DNA from: a virus
Taxonomy: Duplodnaviria > Heunggongvirae > Uroviricota > Caudoviricetes
Virus record (IMG/VR): IMGVR_UViG_2778261570_000014
Length of the DNA stretch: 18,682 nt
Strand: one strand, 5' to 3'
Below are positions 2,524-18,682 of the stretch, piece by piece. The position numbers and the translations under genes were made by a program. Within the stretch, counting starts at the first letter, position 1, and every line of letters starts with the position of its first letter. The notes under the pieces are model-generated. The model did not search any database. It saw nothing but the letters and a program-made list of their open reading frames with translations, and had not been told where the DNA came from.

Positions 2524-3954
2524 TTACGGGTAAGAAATGCTGAACGTTGAAGATTTTACGTTAAGATAAATGAAGTCATTAAAGTAAACAGCATCTTTCA
2601 TATTTTGTATTGTTATGTCGTAAGACAGAAACATATCCAGAGACTCTATTACTCGCCAAATATCCTTAACTTTTACCTGTGCATAACATTGCTGGGAATC
2701 ATCATCACTCTGTAGTAATAAACTGAATGATGACGAATCACGGCCAAAATTATCTTCCAACGCTGCTTTAATAGCATTTTGAGCATCGTCTATCAGAACA
2801 TTTTTACGTGCAATACCTATAAAATTTATAGTAAATGGCTGTTCATTTGTATCTACATACTCGAACCGCTTGTTCAACTCATTTGGAACATTCTCTAGAG
2901 CTTTCAGTATTTCTGATTTTAGCTGAGACTGGCTTACACCCGGCTTATGTCCGCAAAAGAAAATTTTGTTGATGTTTCGAACGTCAAACCCAGTTATTTT
3001 CTCTTGTAACGCTTCGCCCCAAACGTTCAACCATGAAGTTCCATGAACAACATTCTGAATGAATTGGCGATAATCACCGCCCCATACCACTTGTTCATCG
3101 TATGCAACATAATACTGAGCACGATTTCGAGTTTCTTCTGTAGTTTCCATACCACTACCACCGGTAATGATCGAATCAGTTTTAAACTCTAGTGACTCCA
3201 CATATTGAGCGATATTTCCAGCCGGTTCTAACTTTTGTCCTTCAGCCAAAGTATAGTCGCCAAGGCTAGCCATAACATCGATTCGAACCTGACAGCCTGC
3301 TGGAGGCATCATACCCATAGAACCATCACCAAACTTGACTCCAAGTTGTTCTGTAGGTTTATATGCCAATGAATAGTGCTTACTCTTGTCTCTGGACATT
3401 CTAAATAATGGGTTATATGTCCATTTTTCTTCTACTCCATCTGTAATAACATAAACATCCAGGCTAGAGACTTCTTTTGTTAACTCTCTGGAAAGCAACA
3501 ATGTCAGAAATAAAGTTTCCTTCTCAATATCAAACGTAATGCTAACAGCTTCATGCTGTTTAGTTTCTACGCCAGAAACAGTTCCTCCAGCAGGAATTAC
3601 AACACTGTTAATAATTGCCAAAGGTGTTTGGTCATTGGCAAGCAATTCAGCCCCGGCTGGTAACGTAATATCCCGATCAGTTTTATTTGTTATAGACGTT
3701 GTTCCGTATGAAGCACTAACAAATCGCCCTACGTAGCTACGGTCTTCAGCAACCGCTAAAATACTTGAGCGGCGCGTTGCCGTTGAAATAAGTCCCTCAG
3801 TGAGGCCGCGACTTGCAAATGTACGGGCAATATAAATAAGCTGCGATCCGAATATAGCGTGCATCTGCACAAACTGACTATTTACAAATCGTGACCACCA
3901 TGTATTTTCATTTAACTTGGCGTTAAATTTGTCCAGTAATTCTGTAATCGTCAC
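2524..3954 (-). CDS. Baseplate J-like protein (476 aa)
   Basis: Directly downstream of the gp25/GPW-like gene; C-terminal region loosely resembles P2 gpJ from memory. Apparent GTG start at 3954 overlapping the upstream stop (GTGA), consistent with translational coupling. Confidence 0.5.
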   Translation of the reverse strand: MTITELLDKFNAKLNENTWWSRFVNSQFVQMHAIFGSQLIYIARTFASRGLTEGLISTATRRSSILAVAEDRSYVGRFVSASYGTTSITNKTDRDITLPAGAELLANDQTPLAIINSVVIPAGGTVSGVETKQHEAVSITFDIEKETLFLTLLLSRELTKEVSSLDVYVITDGVEEKWTYNPLFRMSRDKSKHYSLAYKPTEQLGVKFGDGSMGMMPPAGCQVRIDVMASLGDYTLAEGQKLEPAGNIAQYVESLEFKTDSIITGGSGMETTEETRNRAQYYVAYDEQVVWGGDYRQFIQNVVHGTSWLNVWGEALQEKITGFDVRNINKIFFCGHKPGVSQSQLKSEILKALENVPNELNKRFEYVDTNEQPFTINFIGIARKNVLIDDAQNAIKAALEDNFGRDSSSFSLLLQSDDDSQQCYAQVKVKDIWRVIESLDMFLSYDITIQNMKDAVYFNDFIYLNVKSSTFSISYP

Positions 3955-4325
3955 GCGCCCACCCCACTTGATTTCTGCATAACAATATCCATGCTCCCAC
4001 CTTTCGCATAAAAACTAATTAATAAAGAATCTTCAGAAATTGATGTGCAACGAATCCCTTGCACATCCAAACCTGGCAAGTCTTGTCGTAGTTTTTTCAT
4101 CATTCTCCCTTCAATAGCCACTTCAACTATGTGCGAAGTTTCAGAGCCGAATGGTTCATGCTTAAATTCTTCCATTGGACTCCCCCAAGAGGGTAAACCA
4201 TAAACACTCCCTTCAGGGGTTCGTAGCCACTCGTCAAGTCGGGCCATCCATGCTGCGGTACTTCCTTCTGCAATAATGACACCGCTCTCATTCGTTTGAA
4301 GTCTTGCGTCTATTTCGTAAAGCAT
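3951..4325 (-). CDS. Baseplate wedge protein, gp25 / GPW-like (124 aa)
   Basis: Size and motif ...RLDEWLRTPEGSVYGLPSWGS... resemble the P2 gpW motif ...ILRTPVGSRVMRRDYGS... as I recall it. ATG at 4325, 5 nt after the stop of the large upstream gene. Confidence 0.6.
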   Translation of the reverse strand: MLYEIDARLQTNESGVIIAEGSTAAWMARLDEWLRTPEGSVYGLPSWGSPMEEFKHEPFGSETSHIVEVAIEGRMMKKLRQDLPGLDVQGIRCTSISEDSLLISFYAKGGSMDIVMQKSSGVGA

Positions 4326-4330
4326 CAGTA

Positions 4331-7300
4331 TTAATCCTCAAGCAGAGCATCCAGCGACTGGTCATTAATAGTTGTGCTCGCACGTGGTCGCGGCTGCGGC
4401 TGCGATGTTTTGACAACATTATCCGGATCGCCTTTTGTATTGTTCTTGTTCACATTCAGCAGATCGTTCAGGATAGAGCAGATGTTATCCAGCGCCTTCA
4501 ACATAGCAGGATCGTTATTTATAGTGTCAGTAGTTAATGGTTGTCTTATTCCGCTTCGTGCGAGATCGGTTACAGTAGGGAGTTGTGGCGGCATAGCAAG
4601 AAAAGGTTCTTGCACAGCTGAAGCAGAGCCAAATATGGCGTTATTGGCACCAGTTGCTATTCCCCTAATGCTATTAGCGGTTTGTTGAATCCCCCCATTC
4701 AGCCAGTCTCCAACATTTCTTGTTAATGGGCTAATAGCTCGCGCAATCGCACTATTCTGCCCAGTAGACTGCATTACAAGATCGTTCAATATCCCTGTAC
4801 TATCAATCCCCCCAACAAGTCGTGAAAGGTTATCGCCAACGGCAGGAATTACTGCGGTTCCTGTCTGTTTAAGCCCTGACACCGTGGAATCAAATAGCGA
4901 ACCAAAGAAGCTCTTATCCTCACCTGTAACCACCTTGTAGCCGTTGTCATAAATCTGCACATCACTTGGTGCCGTGATAGTTCGTTTTCCAGAGGTAACT
5001 ACTGGCGCAGCTCCCGCCATAGCCTGGCTGATTGCTAGAGCCTGCTCCTGCTGTGGGGTTTTCGGTGCAGGCGCTGCAGACGAAAAGCCCGCCATAGCCT
5101 GGCTGATTGCTAGAGCCTGCTCCTGCTGTGGAGTTTTCGGTGCTGGCGCTGCAGATGAAAAGCCCGCCATAGCCTGGCTGATTGCTAGAGCCTGCTCCTG
5201 CTGTGGAGTTTTCGGTGCTGGCGCTGCAGATGAAAAGCCCGCCATAGCCTGGCTGATTGCTAGAGCCTGCTCCTGCTGTGGAGTTTTCGGTGCTGGCGCT
5301 GCAGATGAAAAGCCCGCCATAGCCTGGCTGATTGCTAGAGCCTGCTCCTGCTGTGGAGTTTTCGGAGTAGAAGGGGATACTTGATCTCCCGGAAGTAGAT
5401 CAATGATTTCTGTATCGTGATTAACAGTGCGTTTTTGTTGTATGGCTGTTGCGATATCAGCCGCTTGAGAAGCTTTTTTAAATCCAAAAGATTTACCGGT
5501 TAAGCCGGATATCTTTTCAGTAAGAGCCTGATCCATTCCTTTCGCTTTTTCGGAAAGCGAAGATATAGAACCAAACGAAGTAGCCAACGCAAAATCCTTT
5601 ACCAGGTCCAGACTTGTTCCAGCAAGGCTGGTAGCCGCGCCGCCAAATAAATTACTTGCACCACTGATTCCGCTTTCATTTATTGCGATTAACCGCTCAA
5701 GCAAACTCGATGGAGAGCCGGTATTAACATCAGCGTTCTCTGGATTAATCGGTTGTGGTTGGTTACCTGTTTTTTGTGGCTTTTTGACTGCCTGGGCATG
5801 TTGTGCAACCTCAATTGGCTGTTGTGTTGCTGTCGGAACGGCATTCAAAACTGGTTGAGCTGGAGATTTTCCATTAGCATATTTTACCTTGCGACCAACA
5901 CTATATTGCGAATCGCGGGCAATTAGCTGACCACCATTTTCTTTCTGAATTTTATTAATCCGCGCCAATGTTTCGTCAGAGAATTGTCCCTCCCATAGAC
6001 CAGTGTTTGTGTTAAATGCTCCAAGTGCGTTCTTAATGAACTCATTATTAACTGCCGGATTTCCGCCTTCTTTCGTCGCAATTGCACGAACTAATTGCGT
6101 CATAACCTCTGGTTTGCTGACATCTATTTTTTCATTAGGCGATACACCAAGATATTTACTGACGTTATCAATATATTGGTTAGTATTGTTCTCATTTGGC
6201 GGTGCCCATTTTGAAATGATGCTGGATACCGTCTGTAACTTCTGATATCCCGCTGCGGCACTGGTGCCGTTGTAATAGCTGGAAACCTGGTTTGCCAGTG
6301 CCCTGATCCCTTCTTCAGGTGTGTTAAATCGCGCAAAACGTTGTTCACCTTTTGCATTTGGCGATTCCAGCGTCGCCCCTTCCTGGTTGGCAAAAACAAG
6401 ATTGCCGAGATTATTATTTCGGTAATTGCGGTTTTTAGCGTTGCTGCCGCCAATATTCAGATCCGCTGCAATGGTGTTGTTGGCAGGTGAACTAAATTCA
6501 GTTGGAGAAGTATACCCGTGCTCACCAACTCCATCCTCGCCATTACGCCCACCTTGTAATTGTTCACCTAGAGAATGAATCGCATCGACAGTTTTTTTGG
6601 TGCCGTCTTCAACAGCTTTTTTTACTTGTTTCGTGTTTTCGTCAGTGGATAAAAATGTATCCTTAAGGCTACCAAAAACAGATTTGGTGATATCTACCGC
6701 GCCGTTAACACCACGAGCAATATCTCCGGTATCAAAATTCTGAAGTTTTTCACCTGCTCTTTCAAATCCTAGCGCAGAAATTCCTTTCCCTATCAAGTTC
6801 GTTGCGCCCGACACCAAGCCCCCCATATCGAGCACATTAGCTGTTGCGTAAGCCGTTTTTTGCTGTTCGGCTACAGCATCATCGTCACTTAATCCAAAGG
6901 CTGCCTTTTGCGCATCTGTATCAGTGTAACCATCTATAGCGTCATATCCCGCCATAGCCAGCGAACCGATGATAGGGATAGCTCTTGCAGCTGTAGAAGC
7001 AGCTGATTTAACACCTATTTTTGCAGCACTTTTGAGGGCTACGGATTCGGTTTTTTTCTTTGCAACAGTTTCACCTGTTTTAACTGTGGCCTCTTCGGCA
7101 ACAACACCTGCTGGCTTAACTGCCTTTGCTGTGTTTTTTGTTTCTTTAGCAATACCCTTAGATGCGTCGCTTGTGGTGCTGATGTCTTTGGCTTTACTAA
7201 CCTTTGTTTTAACAGTCTTTGCAGCTCCGGCACCAGCTCCAGCAGCAGCGGTTCCGGCAGCGGCTTTTTCACCAACAGTAAGGGCTTTTTTCCCCAGATT

Positions 7301-8461
7301 GCGACCTTTCCTTTTCGGTTTGTTCCGTTTATTTTTACCAGCCTGATCGCCAATATTGATTTTATTTCTTCTGCTTGCTCGATTTCTCCAGAGATCACTT
7401 AAGCCGAACTTATTCCCAGAAGATACTGATTTGCGTAGCTTAACTACTTCGTCGGAGACATTTTCCAGACCATCAATTATTTTGTTGTCATTGGTCTGAA
7501 GAATTTTTGTTTGCTCTTCTACTGCTTGTGCTGATTTTGTCTCAACAGCATTATTAAATGCTGTTGCAGAGGTTGCTTTTTGAGTATTAACCACCGCCGG
7601 ATAAGTGATAGCTGGAGATGTCGCTTTCGAAGGTGAAGCCTCACCTTTCCCCTTTTCTACCCATTCTTTAAGAGATTCTGCTTTACCTGTGATCTCTTTA
7701 GTAATGTCGTACATGCCGCGAGCAGCCATCCACAACGGACCACCAGCGCCAACACCTGCGGCATCTGTTAAAGACTCTTCACTGGAAGACTGATTGCCAT
7801 CTACCCCTATAATGGAGCCTAATTTCCGGAGGAAGCCTTCTTGTAGTTTGGCGTCGGCCTTATGTGCTTTCTGCCATTCTTTTTTTCTGGCTATATCTTC
7901 GTTGTTTTTCTGGGATACAAAGCGTCCGTTACTATCCCGAAGCGGTCCTTTTTGGCTTTGGGGGGATTGTGGTTCAAGAGGAGCAGAATTAGCGGCTAAT
8001 GGCACAGAACCTTTCAACTTTTGGGCTGACTGGCGTGATGACGCAAAATGAACGCGCTCTGATGTGTTGGTTGCAACAATGAGACGTTCTTCTCCGTTGT
8101 TGACCTGCGTCCTCCCTTTTTTCATCGGAAGGCGTTTTATATATGGGTTAGCTTGGGTATTCTTGGCATCATCAGAGACATAGGGTTCGCTTGCTATGAG
8201 TCTACGGGATAGTCTTTGACTTACTTTACCTTGATTTTCACCAAGTTGAGTTATAGACCCTCTACCAGAGAGAATGGCGTCTTTGATCTCAGCAAGAGCG
8301 TTAAGTTCGTTTGTGCTCGCCCCCTGAATAGCGTCAATTATTGCGATACGGTCTTTATTCTCTTTCAAAATAACCTCTCTTTTGCCAGCGGCGATCAACG
8401 TTTCCCGGCTTGAGCTTTGTATTTTTCTTCCAGGGCTTTTGACATATGGAGTGCTCGCCAT
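4331..8461 (-). CDS. Large virion protein (1376 aa), tape-measure-like or structural injection protein
   Basis: Long ORF immediately upstream of the baseplate genes. Contains a Lys/Ala/Gly-rich low-complexity region, a globular segment (NNLGNLVFANQEG...GIRALANQV...WAPPNENNT...) and five 25-aa tandem repeats. ATG at 8461. Confidence 0.6.
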   Translation of the reverse strand: MASTPYVKSPGRKIQSSSRETLIAAGKREVILKENKDRIAIIDAIQGASTNELNALAEIKDAILSGRGSITQLGENQGKVSQRLSRRLIASEPYVSDDAKNTQANPYIKRLPMKKGRTQVNNGEERLIVATNTSERVHFASSRQSAQKLKGSVPLAANSAPLEPQSPQSQKGPLRDSNGRFVSQKNNEDIARKKEWQKAHKADAKLQEGFLRKLGSIIGVDGNQSSSEESLTDAAGVGAGGPLWMAARGMYDITKEITGKAESLKEWVEKGKGEASPSKATSPAITYPAVVNTQKATSATAFNNAVETKSAQAVEEQTKILQTNDNKIIDGLENVSDEVVKLRKSVSSGNKFGLSDLWRNRASRRNKINIGDQAGKNKRNKPKRKGRNLGKKALTVGEKAAAGTAAAGAGAGAAKTVKTKVSKAKDISTTSDASKGIAKETKNTAKAVKPAGVVAEEATVKTGETVAKKKTESVALKSAAKIGVKSAASTAARAIPIIGSLAMAGYDAIDGYTDTDAQKAAFGLSDDDAVAEQQKTAYATANVLDMGGLVSGATNLIGKGISALGFERAGEKLQNFDTGDIARGVNGAVDITKSVFGSLKDTFLSTDENTKQVKKAVEDGTKKTVDAIHSLGEQLQGGRNGEDGVGEHGYTSPTEFSSPANNTIAADLNIGGSNAKNRNYRNNNLGNLVFANQEGATLESPNAKGEQRFARFNTPEEGIRALANQVSSYYNGTSAAAGYQKLQTVSSIISKWAPPNENNTNQYIDNVSKYLGVSPNEKIDVSKPEVMTQLVRAIATKEGGNPAVNNEFIKNALGAFNTNTGLWEGQFSDETLARINKIQKENGGQLIARDSQYSVGRKVKYANGKSPAQPVLNAVPTATQQPIEVAQHAQAVKKPQKTGNQPQPINPENADVNTGSPSSLLERLIAINESGISGASNLFGGAATSLAGTSLDLVKDFALATSFGSISSLSEKAKGMDQALTEKISGLTGKSFGFKKASQAADIATAIQQKRTVNHDTEIIDLLPGDQVSPSTPKTPQQEQALAISQAMAGFSSAAPAPKTPQQEQALAISQAMAGFSSAAPAPKTPQQEQALAISQAMAGFSSAAPAPKTPQQEQALAISQAMAGFSSAAPAPKTPQQEQALAISQAMAGAAPVVTSGKRTITAPSDVQIYDNGYKVVTGEDKSFFGSLFDSTVSGLKQTGTAVIPAVGDNLSRLVGGIDSTGILNDLVMQSTGQNSAIARAISPLTRNVGDWLNGGIQQTANSIRGIATGANNAIFGSASAVQEPFLAMPPQLPTVTDLARSGIRQPLTTDTINNDPAMLKALDNICSILNDLLNVNKNNTKGDPDNVVKTSQPQPRPRASTTINDQSLDALLED
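5010..5366 (-). repeat. Tandem direct repeat, 75-bp unit in about 4.75 copies, inside the large virion protein gene
   Basis: GCCATAGCC recurs at 5016, 5091, 5166, 5241 and 5316 (period exactly 75). The middle copies are identical and the first differs at a few positions. Encodes (APAPKTPQQEQALAISQAMAGFSSA)n in frame. Confidence 0.9.
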
Positions 8462-8515: not shown

Positions 8516-9337
8516 TTAATAATGGTTAGCCATCCATTCAGATCTAATTGATGGGATAAACTCTCTATTGAGAAAGGGGACGTACAGTGTGGTTGTCACA
8601 TCTGCACCCTCCTTAGCGTTTTTGCAATGTTGCGGAGGCAGGATCAGTCGGCTTGAGCCTCTCTCAATAGACATTTTCAGGCCGTGGCGTAGGTCTTTTT
8701 GCATAAGCTGTATGCGAGCCACAAGCGGGGTAAATTCGGTTTCAAGCGCCATGCTTTCAATGATGTCAAAGCGTCGGTTAGCGGCCTGCGTGAAGTCCTC
8801 CGGATCGTCTTCAAGCGCCGTGCATAAAGCGAGTTCAGCAATTCGCATCCGTGCTACGCCAGCACTGTATTCGGGAGTTTTCATATCAGGAAGTGACGCT
8901 CGCATTCGTTCAAGGAGTTCCGCGCCTTTCCCGGTTAATGGTTTAAGTATCCAGTCAGTTGGTACTCCATTTACTGGTACGTTGGTTTTCACGTAAGGAG
9001 GTACAGTGAGTATTTCTACTGTTTGGGCCAGGTCGCTCAGGTTAATATCTGCATGATGCGTATTACCGCAGTGACTGCACTCATAGGAGTAGGTCATTAC
9101 TGCATCGGGGCGCGAATTAACAAATATCCACCAAAGAGCAGTTCTGCGGTCCTGAACTGTCCAGTTAGCACTGTCGTTAATTTCACCATCCTGCATAGAG
9201 TTAAGGTACTCTGTAGTCGTTGCCTCATCTTCTGCCGGGTTCAGGTCAGAATATTTCAGCGCATCCTTCACGGTAGGGGCGTGGAACTGAATTTCTGTCT
9301 CAGGACGGGAAGGCAATGGGAATTTTGGAATGTTCAA
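8516..9337 (-). CDS. Hypothetical protein (273 aa) with a C-x2-C...HH...N motif; divergently oriented from repA
   Basis: ORF with apparent TTG start at 9337 and a GGAGG Shine-Dalgarno 5 nt upstream; first in-frame Met is about residue 47. Contains YECSHCGNTHHADINL. Function unknown. Confidence 0.5.
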   Translation of the reverse strand: MNIPKFPLPSRPETEIQFHAPTVKDALKYSDLNPAEDEATTTEYLNSMQDGEINDSANWTVQDRRTALWWIFVNSRPDAVMTYSYECSHCGNTHHADINLSDLAQTVEILTVPPYVKTNVPVNGVPTDWILKPLTGKGAELLERMRASLPDMKTPEYSAGVARMRIAELALCTALEDDPEDFTQAANRRFDIIESMALETEFTPLVARIQLMQKDLRHGLKMSIERGSSRLILPPQHCKNAKEGADVTTTLYVPFLNREFIPSIRSEWMANHY

Positions 9338-9442
9338 TTATTCCTCCGAAAAGCAGGTATCTGTTCATTTTCCAGAGGATAGGGAGTGTGTGATTTGCGA
9401 TGGGGATTGAATGAAGATCTTTGCCGGTCGAGAAGCGATTAT

Positions 9443-9461
9443 TGAGGGTGATTTTTACACC
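9443..9461 (+). promoter_or_regulatory. Inverted iteron copy upstream of the origin, probable RepA operator
   Basis: TGAGGGTGATTTTTACACC is the reverse complement of the iteron consensus with two mismatches. Confidence 0.5.
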
Positions 9462-9479
9462 TTAAGTGACGCTACTCAC

Positions 9480-9488
9480 ATATCCACA
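9480..9488 (+). promoter_or_regulatory. DnaA-box-like site (ATATCCACA, 8/9 match to TTATNCACA)
   Basis: Seen in sequence directly next to the AT-rich tract and iterons, the usual Rep_3 origin layout. Confidence 0.45.
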
Positions 9489-9545
9489 GAGTATTTTTAT
9501 AAACCTTTTTCCATTTTTAATCCTTTTTAGATCCTTTTTAGGCGT
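9489..9545 (+). promoter_or_regulatory. AT-rich tract with short phased CCTTTTT-type repeats, candidate DNA-unwinding element
   Basis: CCTTTTTCC, ATTTTTAA and TCCTTTTTAG (twice, 11 bp apart) between the DnaA-box-like site and the iterons. Confidence 0.45.
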
Positions 9546-9583
9546 CGCTGGAGCCAGTAGTGGCGCGGGCTGTAGAGGAGGCT

Positions 9584-9701
9584 GGTGTAAGATTTGCCCT
9601 CAATTAAATACGATCGGTGTAAGATTTGCCCTCAGAAGGTGTAAGATTTGCCCTCAAAAGGTGTAGTAATTGCCCTCAAAGTGGTGTAAAAATTGCCCTC
9701 A
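9584..9701 (+). repeat. Iteron array: five direct 19-bp repeats (consensus GGTGTAAGATTTGCCCTCA) upstream of repA
   Basis: Copies at 9584-9602, 9616-9634, 9638-9656, 9660-9678 and 9683-9701. The first three are identical; copies 4 and 5 differ at 2-3 positions. Spacing 32, 22, 22, 23 bp. Confidence 0.85.
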
Positions 9702-9725
9702 CCATTTGAAGGATCACACAGGGTT

Positions 9726-10481
9726 ATGAACAGAGCGGAATTAACAGCAAAAGCCGTCAGCCTGATTGAGTCAGCGACACCTATTAGTCGTAGTCTGGCA
9801 CAAGCCAATGAGATCACGGAGGCTGCTTATCACCTGACTCGCGACCAAAAGCGACTGTTGTTTATTGTGGTGGGAAGACTTCGCTATGCTTCTAAGGATG
9901 GCGTTCTTGGTTCAGGTGCCTGTGAGTTGACGGTCAACGAATATGCAGAGATGTATAATTTGCCCTCTGCTGAAGCCAGCAAGGATATTCGTAAGGCCAT
10001 TTCAGGGCTTAGCGAGAAGAAAGTTACGATATATAACCCTGATGAATCGACCGAATCAGAAGACAGTTATGAGTCTTATCCCTGGATGATTAAGGATGCC
10101 TATTCACCACGGCGCGGGACTTACATTATTCATCTTAATCCATATCTCATGCCGTTTTTTACTCTGCTTGATAAGAGATTCACAAGGCTGAATTTTACCG
10201 AAGTATCTCGCCTTACAAATCCTTATTCTATGCGGCTTTATGAGTCCTTATGCCAGTACAGGAAGGATGATGGAAGCGGCTTTGCCATACTTGGCGTCGA
10301 ATGGATGCGGGAGCGTTATGGGTTACCAAAAAGCTATCAGCGGTATGCCGAATTTAAGAGAAGTTTTTTAACGAAGGCTGTAGCAGAGATTGAAAAAAAT
10401 ACAAAAATGAAAATAGTCTTCTCAGAGGTGACGGAAGGCGGCAAAGTTACCAGGATAAAATTTACCTATCAGCAGTCTTAA
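9726..10481 (+). CDS. repA: Replication initiator RepA, Rep_3 family (iteron-binding)
   Basis: 251 aa from ATG 9726 (the ORF track starts at an in-frame TTG at 9693 inside iteron 5). Flanked by iterons; resembles pSC101 RepA from memory (LTRDQKRLLFIVVG..., NPYSMRLYESL..., C-terminal KVTRIKFTY). Only gene on the plus strand in a minus-strand cluster. Confidence 0.85.
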   Translation: MNRAELTAKAVSLIESATPISRSLAQANEITEAAYHLTRDQKRLLFIVVGRLRYASKDGVLGSGACELTVNEYAEMYNLPSAEASKDIRKAISGLSEKKVTIYNPDESTESEDSYESYPWMIKDAYSPRRGTYIIHLNPYLMPFFTLLDKRFTRLNFTEVSRLTNPYSMRLYESLCQYRKDDGSGFAILGVEWMRERYGLPKSYQRYAEFKRSFLTKAVAEIEKNTKMKIVFSEVTEGGKVTRIKFTYQQS

Positions 10482-10772
10482 GGGCAATTTTTACACCCCT
10501 CTCAAGGTGTAGAATTTGCCCTTAACGATCGGCAATTGAGGGTAATTTTTACATCTTAATTGCATGTATCTTGTTATTAGCAAGTTGTGTTTTTATATAA
10601 CGTATTGATATGTAAGGATTATGTAAAAAACGCCCTCAACCAATATCGTGCGTATCGTGCATTCTTATTGCGCTTTTTTATTATCATTCACTGTGTTAAC
10701 TGATTGATATTATTGAAATATGTAAAGAATGCCTTCATTGCAGATGGATTGATGATGTAAAAAATGCCCTCA
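10479..10772 (+). repeat. Downstream iteron cluster: at least six iteron-like sites, mixed orientation and degenerate, in an AT-rich region
   Basis: Inverted copy 10479-10497 overlapping the repA stop, direct 10506-10524, inverted 10537-10555, and degenerate direct copies at 10621-10638, 10720-10737 and 10754-10772. No ORF in this region. Confidence 0.7.
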
Positions 10773-10862
10773 AAATTGCGCTACCTTCCCTACCCGCTAT
10801 CGTTGAGGTCGTGGGTGCTGACGGGAAATGAGCAACCCTCCAGCACACATAATTAAAGCTAT

Positions 10863-11570
10863 TCAGAATTTGATCACTCCACTCACAGCCCCCTTTAACG
10901 CGCTTGTAGCCATGCCAGCGGCACCGTTGACCAAAGCAGAAACACCTGAGCCTGCGGATGTGTATTTCTGGAAAGTGATTGGATATGACAAGAACTCTGA
11001 CACCTGGTCTCGTGAGCGGGTGATTTCCCCAAGTTGAGTGGGGAATACGCGCATTTCCTCTTCCAGTTCTTTACCGCCATCCTGAGTTACCCGGTAGAGC
11101 CGGATCTTCATTAGATATTCAGGAGGAAGGTTTATTGTTCCGTCCGGGTTTGTCACGCGGGAACGACGCTCTTTGAACCAGTTCATGATCTTGCCGTCTT
11201 CGGTATCCCTTACGGTCATCGTGACTGGTCCGGCGGTGACGTAGGTTGGCTTGCTGAACTCTACGCTACCTATCACCTTGTTTTCTGTCTCGATATTTCC
11301 GCTGCTGTAGGTGATATCCTTCACGAACATATCGAAACCGTTCAGACCGTCCACTTCAACCGTCCACTGCCATCCCTGGGCGTAACGAATACGCATAGCG
11401 GCAGCAACAATATTTTTCCCGTAGGCAATATCGCTGCTGTAGTTCCCACTTACCCCGCCGCCGGATATTGCTTTATCCAGAATGTCGCTAATGAGGTTGC
11501 TGGTGAATGATTTTGTGTTAAATGACAGTGCGGTGGTCAACGTTCTGCCAACGCTGCTGAAAATACTCAC
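10863..11570 (-). CDS. Hypothetical virion or tail protein (235 aa)
   Basis: Co-oriented with the tail genes; apparent GTG start at 11570 with GGAGG upstream. No motif recognised. Confidence 0.5.
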   Translation of the reverse strand: MSIFSSVGRTLTTALSFNTKSFTSNLISDILDKAISGGGVSGNYSSDIAYGKNIVAAAMRIRYAQGWQWTVEVDGLNGFDMFVKDITYSSGNIETENKVIGSVEFSKPTYVTAGPVTMTVRDTEDGKIMNWFKERRSRVTNPDGTINLPPEYLMKIRLYRVTQDGGKELEEEMRVFPTQLGEITRSRDQVSEFLSYPITFQKYTSAGSGVSALVNGAAGMATSALKGAVSGVIKF

Positions 11571-12137: not shown

Positions 12138-12163
12138 CGTACCTACAACTCAAATACAAGGAA

Positions 12164-12184
12164 TTCCCGCCACAAGGGCGGGAA
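12164..12184 (-). other. Intercistronic stem-loop (TTCCCGCC / GGCGGGAA, 5-nt loop) directly after the tail tube stop codon
   Basis: Perfect 8-bp GC-rich inverted repeat, followed on the minus transcript by a moderately U-rich stretch before the next ATG. Confidence 0.4.
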
Positions 12185-12189
12185 AGAGA

Positions 12190-13286: not shown

Positions 13287-13334
13287 AGCTATTTCTCCCA
13301 GGTAGAGGCCACCTTTGCAGGCGGCCTATGTCAC

Positions 13335-14069: not shown

Positions 14070-14083
14070 ATTCAAACCTCTCT

Positions 14084-14105
14084 CCCCCGCATCATTTAGC
14101 GGGGG
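14084..14105 (-). other. Intercistronic stem-loop (CCCCCGC / GCGGGGG, 8-nt loop) directly after the sheath stop codon
   Basis: Perfect 7-bp GC stem 8 nt from the sheath stop; no U-tract on the minus transcript. Confidence 0.4.
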
Positions 14106-14112
14106 TTATAAA

Positions 14113-15771: not shown

Positions 15772-15838
15772 GCTGGTTCTTATCCTCTAAAGCGAGAGAA
15801 CGAGGCAAGGCTGCCCACGGTTAATGGGCAGCCTCTGA

Positions 15839-16117: not shown

Positions 16118-16130
16118 TTTTTTCTCCTTA

Positions 16131-16158
16131 ACGCCCCTTAATCAGGGGCGTGTTTTTG
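16131..16158 (+). terminator. Terminator-shaped hairpin (ACGCCCCT / AGGGGCGT, 5-nt loop) followed by GTTTTTG on the plus strand
   Basis: Canonical intrinsic-terminator geometry for plus-strand transcription, but it lies between two minus-strand genes just upstream of the Ig-like gene's ribosome-binding site. Confidence 0.4.
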
Positions 16159-16264
16159 CCTTACTTCTGCTTTGTTTTTTTCTGTGCCTTTGAAGTGTTC
16201 GCGGCGATAGTTTCACCTTCATCTACGTCAAGTGACGTTGGTGATACCGACACGTTCGCCACCA

Positions 16265-17962: not shown

Positions 17963-18120
17963 GGTTAAGCCCTAAATTCGGGCGCGGCGTGAAGGTTCTT
18001 TTGACGGGCTAACAATACCTACTTTGTGATTTAGTCAATAGGTTTAGTAAAATAAAATCTATTAACACGCATGTTGTTATGTGATTTAATTTTAATTTTC
18101 TAACACAAATCATTAGAGTT
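17963..18120. promoter_or_regulatory. AT-rich divergent intergenic region, probable promoters for the capsid gene and the plus-strand gene
   Basis: Markedly AT-rich; TTGACG at 18001-18006; TGTGATTTA occurs twice (about 18026 and 18081). No confident -10/-35 assignment. Confidence 0.35.
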
Positions 18121-18525
18121 ATGGCGTATCGAATCTTTGTTTCGTATAAAAATGGCGCTAAGAGCCACTCTCTGAACACAACAAGTCGCTTTCTTGTTGA
18201 GGCGCAGTTGGCATCAATTCTTGCCGAAAGTGAGATACTCTCGCTCGCTGAACGGATCGTTATCCAGTTTTCTGGTAGAGATATACTCAATGTCCCCGCC
18301 CTCACCCCGGCATCCGAAGTTATGGAATCAGTTAAATGGCCTGTATGCGGATGTCCTGCCAGGGTTGAAGAGCCGGTAACTGCAACGCTCTACATGCCGA
18401 AAGCAGTAAGAGATTGGCTTGCTATGGTTGGCAATGGGAAAGTCAGTGCTGGACTTCGCAAGTTAATTGAAATGGCGGATATTCCTGAGTTAAAAAACGC
18501 ATGGCGACAGCGAACAGATTTTTAG
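18121..18525 (+). CDS. Hypothetical small protein (134 aa); C-terminal segment has a ribbon-helix-helix-like pattern
   Basis: ATG start, own AT-rich upstream region, hairpin terminator right after the stop. ...TATLYMPKAVRDWLAMVGNGKVSAGLRKLIEMA reads as strand, helix, G-x-S-type turn, helix (inference only). Preferred over the overlapping minus ORF 18009..18305. Confidence 0.45.
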   Translation: MAYRIFVSYKNGAKSHSLNTTSRFLVEAQLASILAESEILSLAERIVIQFSGRDILNVPALTPASEVMESVKWPVCGCPARVEEPVTATLYMPKAVRDWLAMVGNGKVSAGLRKLIEMADIPELKNAWRQRTDF

Positions 18526-18533
18526 TCACGAAA

Positions 18534-18552
18534 GCCCCGGACAGGCCGGGGC
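18534..18552. terminator. GC-rich hairpin (GCCCCGG / CCGGGGC, 5-nt loop) between convergent genes
   Basis: Sits 8 nt after the stop of the plus gene and 8 nt before the stop of the minus partial gene; flanking U-tracts are weak on both strands. Confidence 0.45.
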
Positions 18553-18560
18553 AACAGTAA

Positions 18561-18682
18561 TTAACTAACAATCCAGTCCGTAGCAACAATATCCTCTGGC
18601 GCTAAATCAATAGCATGGATTTTCCCGTCCCGGATAGTGCGCCAGTGCTTTCGTGATCCACCTTCGGGCCACACCCATATAC
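18561..18682 (-). CDS. Partial CDS, last 40 codons of a gene that starts beyond the window end
   Basis: Open minus-strand frame ending in TAA at 18563..18561 (...KIHAIDLAPEDIVATDWIVS*). Short, so statistical support is weak. Confidence 0.3.
   Translation of the reverse strand, partial: IWVWPEGGSRKHWRTIRDGKIHAIDLAPEDIVATDWIVS

Follow-up and report, generated by a model that had tools for sequence, protein, structure and literature searches.

The 18,682-nucleotide stretch of viral DNA analysed here (IMG/VR record IMGVR_UViG_2778261570_000014; "the window" below) carries, on the plus strand and between the minus-strand tail genes pmgB and tub, a replicon built around the initiator gene repA, which is very probably the functional low-copy plasmid-maintenance replicon of a D6-like phage-plasmid of the P1 family. 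In a nucleotide comparison, the window was 95% identical to Escherichia phage D6 over 93% of its length, and it was co-linear with D6, structural genes included, in the gene order of D6 orf35-52, which places it among the D6-like (P1g2) elements, a recognised subgroup of P1-family phage-plasmids (PMC10879196; PMC11165635). The replicon segment matched D6 45455-46974 (NC_050154 / MF356679) with 99.0% DNA identity, in the same orientation and between the same flanks; it differed by a few point changes (for example, iteron 5 carries GATG in D6 and GGTG in the window), and the two RepA proteins were 100% identical. The replicon is already known: the GenBank record of D6 labels orf42 a putative initiator of plasmid replication, and the group to which the replicon belongs is well sampled; repB of D6-like elements already serves as a screening marker (10.1101/2025.09.12.675607).

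Anatomy and kinship of the replicon

The features of the replicon are as follows.
9443..9461, minus strand: inverted copy of the iteron, separated from the others by the DnaA box, scoring 21.3 bits with the position weight matrix and kept in the related plasmid NZ_CP104667
9480-9488, plus strand: DnaA box ATATCCACA, matching TTATNCACA at 8 of 9 positions and aligning with a DnaA box of F ori2
9489-9543, plus strand: AT-rich tract, the presumed unwinding element, 55 bp with 75% A+T, CCTTTTT repeats and one GATC
9544-9583, plus strand: G+C-rich spacer (67.5% G+C) directly 3' of the AT-rich tract
9584..9701, plus strand: five direct 19-bp origin iterons, GGTGTAAGATTTGCCCTCA and variants
9726..10481, plus strand: repA, 251 amino acids, from the ATG at 9726 (the start annotated in relatives) to the stop at 10481
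9950..9968, plus strand: iteron-like site inside repA, 17.5 bits, kept in D6 and NZ_CP104667
10479..10772, both orientations: downstream iteron cluster of six copies

The origin iterons start at 9584, 9616, 9638, 9660 and 9683, with a spacing of 32/22/22/23 bp. Position-weight scanning placed every site of at least 14 bits, thirteen in total, within 9443-10772 and none elsewhere in the window, and this pattern is not due to chance. Two of the downstream copies form a head-to-head pair at 10479-10524, which overlaps the repA stop codon and folds on either strand into a hairpin of -31.5 kcal/mol (z = -5.3). An Rfam scan of 9200-11000 returned one chance-level match only. The sequence-only reading had described a complete Rep_3-type replicon on the plus strand between minus-strand tail genes, and each element that it listed was recovered in place.

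Both winged-helix domains of the Rep_3 family (PF01051 and PF21205), required together for assignment to it, were found in RepA above their Pfam gathering cut-offs: Rep3_N with 3.4e-29 and 102.5 bits (cut-off 22.4) and Rep3_C with 9.8e-16 and 58.2 bits (cut-off 21.1). The family assignment proposed from the sequence thus passed the profile search that had been suggested for it. RepA is related to RepE of mini-F, which it matched with E 1.4e-73 in the comparison with structure PDB 1REP and with about 51% identity over 228 amino acids, and the nearest relatives outside the D6-like group are thousands of IncF-type repE genes. At the same time, RepA scored 280.6 bits against the RepE equivalog model (NCBIfam NF010305), below the cut-off of 342, and therefore represents a subfamily related to RepE and not an equivalog of it. 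The replicon does not belong to the P1 RepA/IncY type with ATGTGTGCTGGAGGG-type iterons (RepA against P1 RepA gave E 0.3 in BLASTP). Identity with the PlasmidFinder type "p0111", which had been assumed at first, was rejected, because the p0111-labelled Rep of the JL22 record, taken as a stand-in for the pO111_2 reference, shared only 28% identity over 64 amino acids with RepA (E 0.14).

The likeness to mini-F (ori2/repE/incC, RepFIA) extends to the whole layout. RepE is also 251 amino acids long, the AT-rich tract of the window aligns with an AT-rich segment of F ori2, and the DnaA box, AT-rich tract and phased 19-bp iterons 5' of the rep gene together make the window origin one of the F ori2 type; in both systems the iterons are 19 bp long, share the 3' half TTGCCCTCA and are spaced by about 22 and 32 bp, and a second iteron cluster follows the rep gene. 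The differences are that F has four origin iterons and the window five, that the downstream iterons of the window are in mixed orientation, and that the window has no adjacent sopABC-type partition operon. Moreover, about 98 bp with an inverted-repeat operator separate the last iteron from the rep start in F, as against 24 bp in the window (9701 to 9726), too few for such an operator. The P1 replicon (oriR/repA/incA, IncY) resembles that of the window in its order of DnaA box, AT-rich GATC region, five promoter-containing iterons, rep gene and control array, and also in its role, the maintenance of the plasmid prophage, but its iteron sequence differs, and it adjoins parAB near upfB, outside the tail cluster within which the window replicon lies. 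The p0111 replicon is likewise a Rep_3 iteron replicon of P1-family phage-plasmids, with a different protein.

Function, maintenance and partition

The near-identical relatives of this 18.7-kb fragment are all circular plasmids of about 90 kb, none of them chromosomal. About 100 such circular, non-mobilizable plasmids from E. coli, Shigella and Salmonella have the replicon segment, with an identity of at least 95%, in the same surroundings, and rep_cluster_1704 is their sole replicon typed by MOB-suite, no other replicon having been typed in plasmids with a cassette of the window type. Among 5,426 complete E. coli genomes, the replicon was present in 104, at 116 places, all on plasmids and none on a chromosome, which excludes a chromosomal prophage with a decayed plasmid remnant. 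The suggestion that the arrangement marks a phage-plasmid is supported by these locations together with the kinship to D6.

Selection on the replicon was assessed against the NZ_CP104667 allele, which is 85% identical over the whole region between pmgB and tub. The repA genes differ at 63 nucleotides (92% identity), with 55 synonymous and 4 non-synonymous codon changes and a dN/dS of 0.018, and so repA is intact and under purifying selection. All thirteen iteron positions and the DnaA box are kept in that allele, and the AT tract differs at few positions, whereas the spacers between the iterons vary. The function of the replicon is thereby strongly implied. It is hardly credible, in our view, that the region is a decayed or silent remnant in an element kept by another replicon or by integration. 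Such a remnant would fit the odd position inside the late genes, far from the par genes, and the failure to find a strong repA promoter, but it would not be expected to retain this dN/dS and every iteron, nor a RepA identical to that of D6 and forming a 90% identity cluster of 222 member sequences; the replicon is, besides, the only typed one of these plasmids, absent from the chromosomes surveyed, and D6 has just one further rep gene, the lytic repL, located at 21.3 kb.

By analogy with F ori2 and P1 oriR, RepA monomers would bind the five phased iterons and, together with host DnaA at the adjacent box, open the AT-rich tract, from which theta replication would start. Since the last iteron ends only 24 bp before the repA ATG, a separate inverted-repeat operator like that of F would not fit, and the repA promoter would have to sit among the iterons, where PrepA of P1 is annotated; it is presumed to lie in iteron copies 4-5, where TGT-AAAAAT and TGT-AGTAAT are weak extended -10 candidates. 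A promoter in this position would be repressed by RepA bound to the iterons, giving an autorepression like that of P1. The downstream and outlying iterons may limit copy number by titration of RepA and by the pairing of origins (handcuffing). Initiation, autorepression, handcuffing and promoter activity are all inferred. In a lysogen, with the late promoters silent, the replicon would work without disturbance among the tail genes; during the lytic phase, repL elsewhere on the element would take over replication, and pmgB-sit-bplA would be driven by a late promoter of their own at the left edge of the replicon.

No partition gene is present in the window. The earlier remark that none adjoins the replicon was therefore accurate, and the par genes that it advised seeking elsewhere were found in D6 at 57.1-59.7 kb, as a ParM/StbA pair and a ParA-like pair adjoining upfB/upfC, about 10.5 kb from the replicon. 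This is the position where P1 keeps oriR-repA-parAB. With the par genes remote from the replicon, replication and partition are uncoupled in D6-like elements.

Late transcription around the replicon

On both sides of the replicon lie P1-type genes for the tail, baseplate, sheath and capsid, and the following features among them are relevant.
8516..9337, minus strand: pmgB homologue (D6 orf41, "similar to P1 gene pmgB"), with a weak Pfam T4_baseplate match
9376..9396, minus strand: candidate Lpa-type late promoter for pmgB, 39 nt upstream of that gene, recognised by its motif
10863..11570, minus strand: tub, tail tube gene (D6 orf43, "similar to P1 gene tub"), 50% identical to P1 Tub
1612-1632, 9376-9396 and 18012-18032, minus strand: copies of AAATCACA-N7-NANNNT ahead of R, pmgB and gene 23, respectively

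On the left flank, pmgB opens the downstream late operon (pmgB-sit-pmgA-bplA-16); on the right flank, tub is the last gene of the upstream late gene string. The minus strand from 9396 to 9376 reads AAATCACACACTCCCTATCCT, with the box AAATCACA at 9396-9389 and a -10-like TATCCT at 9381-9376. This box emerged from the comparison of intergenic regions, and it resembles the annotated -22 box of P1, which is AAGTTACTT at LPs and AAATGACTA at LPsit. In the D6 genome, AAATCACA-N7-NANNNT was observed 8 times against 0.32 expected from first-order Markov simulations (maximum 3 in 200 runs), and all 8 copies are intergenic, upstream of a late gene and co-oriented with it, the genes being R, pmgB, 23, prt, ddrB, 7, mat and the lysozyme-like orf16. 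The copy at pmgB is kept in loci L013, L014 (NZ_CP085065), L016 and L008 (NZ_CP099371), where the sequence next to it is wholly different. The late-promoter consensus of P1, AAGTNACTT-N4-TANNNT, gave nothing above chance in the window. The motif, which differs from that consensus, is a candidate late promoter specific to D6, and its copy at 9376-9396 may be read as the late promoter of the pmgB-sit operon, pointing away from the origin.

The sequence-only reading had held that late transcription would have to cross the origin and a divergent repA promoter. With a candidate late promoter 39 nt upstream of pmgB that would fire away from the origin, this worry is probably unfounded. No copy of the motif was found between gene 23 and tub, so that genes 23 through tub would be a single long unit, and late transcription could enter the replicon only by read-through from tub and only in lytic growth. 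In P1, Lpa is under C1 control. D6 has an lpa homologue, orf4, and, if the same regulation applies, the late promoters would be off in the lysogen and no conflict would arise.

In P1, LPsit drives pmgC-tub-pmgB-sit-pmgA-bplA-16 as one operon, in which tub and pmgB are 14 bp apart; it follows that in the window the replicon splits what is a single operon in P1. This comparison, and the lack of a clear terminator after tub in the window, would suit a recent, accidental and costly insertion, after which tail-gene expression would need transcription through the origin. Such an accident nevertheless appears very unlikely, given the conserved late-promoter motif 39 nt upstream of pmgB, the stability of the arrangement in more than 100 plasmids from three genera, and a Citrobacter relative in which this junction lacks a rep gene but retains a 432-bp gap and the motif, showing the split to be independent of this particular replicon. 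An insertion into this gene cluster is also present in P1, where the immunity region and the lytic replicon (kilA-repL-oriL) interrupt it between bplB and pmgC and expression further downstream is restored by LPsit. Non-structural modules that lie among the tail genes and have a late promoter after them are thus habitual in the family and no anomaly.

Several observations weigh against a functional maintenance replicon working undisturbed in this place. Only one DnaA box is present, as compared with two in F, and a consensus scan of 9200-11000 gave no good sigma-70 promoter upstream of repA. The late promoter of pmgB is proposed from a motif, and no canonical terminator was found either from tub to the replicon on the minus strand or from repA to tub on the plus strand, so that read-through is possible in both directions. 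Additionally, no experimental test of the replicon was found in the literature, the D6 genome publication lying outside the coverage of the search. The terminator candidates tried and rejected were two plus-strand sites at 10648-10673, which fold no better than shuffled sequence, and a hairpin after tub at 10816-10847, which was not significant and has no U-run.

The lack of canonical terminators also bears on a further role for the iterons, namely that arrays bound by RepA act as a roadblock or insulator keeping repA transcription and late read-through apart, with the palindrome at the repA stop as a two-way barrier. The presence of iterons on both sides of repA and the stability of the head-to-head pair on either strand would accord with this role. 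The proposal is purely inferential, however, and downstream iteron clusters are standard means of copy control in F and in P1 (incA), with no extra role needed, and for these reasons we consider it unlikely.

The pmgB-tub junction, its variants and other features of the window

Comparison with other D6-like elements showed that replicon cassettes have been replaced at the pmgB-tub junction during evolution. The junction was occupied in the following ways.
NZ_CP066033 and at least 8 others: P1-type replicon with P1-type iterons, its RepA 84% identical to P1 RepA
NZ_CP085065, perhaps also CP042620: p0111-like Rep, then leftover window-type iterons
CP055626: window-type replicon plus an icd/rha insert
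NZ_CP116996: window-type replicon plus an IS200/IS605 insertion
Citrobacter portucalensis NZ_CP099371: 432-bp repeat-rich spacer with the late-promoter motif and no rep gene

The alternative cassettes occupy the same junction in the same orientation as the window replicon, and three types are represented: F-RepE-like, P1-RepA-like and p0111-like. The cassette of the NZ_CP066033 type has 71% nucleotide identity to P1 oriR-repA-incA, and the JL22 p0111 Rep is 85% identical to the Rep of NZ_CP085065. In P1, Cronobacter phage JK004, pO111_2 (itself a P1-type element) and E. albertii pEA22_2, tub and pmgB are contiguous, lying 14-15 bp apart. The replicon had earlier been taken for an exchangeable module, with the contiguity of the tail genes in relatives as a check on this; both expectations agree with the arrangements found, unrelated Rep_3 replicons included.

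The window and NZ_CP066033 cease to be homologous at 9393 and are so again from 10836 on, and the exchanged unit therefore extends from just past the box of the late promoter to a point about 27 bp from tub. Near its right border lies one more feature.
10833..10851, minus strand: TATGTGTGCTGGAGGGTTG, a lone iteron of the P1/IncY type that shares its 15-nt core with the P1 incC iterons

This iteron, also present in D6 at 46948-46966, is 11 bp from the tub stop, the place of the last iteron in the IncY-type cassette of NZ_CP066033, and is presumed to be a relic of a replaced P1-type replicon. We lean somewhat towards the view that the junction is a dedicated slot, bounded by the late promoter and the end of tub, where complete ori-rep-inc cassettes, belonging to no fewer than three Rep_3 types, have replaced one another in the same orientation, with relic iterons left behind. 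Cassettes of the window type also move between backbones, as RepE-type relatives with 78% and 71% identity lie at different positions in other P1-like contigs, and one with 57% identity is on an ordinary Nissabacter plasmid.

If the slot is real, D6-like phages could change their plasmid incompatibility without touching partition or structural genes. The comparison offers a testable picture of incompatibility-group change, in which a compact ori-rep-inc cassette is swapped at a fixed place while, owing to the late promoter, the tail genes downstream do not depend on what occupies the slot. No description of such a slot was found in the accessible literature, although the D6 genome publication, which was outside the coverage, may hold part of it; together with the relic iteron and the candidate late-promoter motif of D6, the slot adds modestly to that literature. 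The RepE-like type, distinct from IncY and p0111, is also of some practical value for typing: standard plasmid typing tools are reported to be without it (10.1101/2025.09.12.675607), with the result that D6-like phage-plasmids can be missed or mislabelled.

Some further details of the variant junctions may be recorded. In NZ_CP085065, the last ~250 bp before tub hold RepE-type iterons homologous to window 10457-10553 and 10717-10773, which now have no cognate initiator on that element. In the CP055626 locus, positions 3467-5413 carry a pair made up of icd and a Rha-family antirepressor between the replicon and tub, and in NZ_CP116996 the slot contains an IS200/IS605 tnpA-tnpB element at 74379-79182. 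The gap in the Citrobacter locus (5703-6134) is non-coding and densely filled with repeats, among them a 24-bp unit repeated 3.4 times, CTCATATA repeated 10.8 times, TCGTATTG repeated 3.2 times and TGTCAT-rich palindromes; it may represent a centromere, an origin or a relic, and the RepB gene of this element sits near upfB/PAAR/ParA, as in P1.

Outside the replicon, the window differs from D6 in sit, at the tail-fibre end and at its right end. Within sit (4331-8461, minus strand), a 75-bp tandem repeat of 4.7 copies with 98% identity, at 5013-5365, lies in a patch of 58% G+C and encodes 25-amino-acid repeats in the Sit tape-measure/transglycosylase protein; window 4847-5471 does not align with D6, and the sit open reading frame has 1376 amino acids in the window against 1260 in D6. 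Both ends of the window, 1-543 and 18510-18682, depart from D6. The tail-fibre end (1-543) matches fibre genes of other phages at 86-88%, and at the right end 18531-18679 corresponds to D6 73992-74140 and not to the D6 sequence that would adjoin, a sign of rearrangement beside the capsid gene. Finally, G+C-rich stem-loops on the minus strand, at 12138-12189, 13287-13334, 14076-14112, 15772-15838 and 16118-16160, occur in most of the spaces between the genes of the late string from 23 to tub, one example being GGCTGCCCATTAACCGTGGGCAGCC ahead of gene 22, and may be attenuators or RNA-stability elements.

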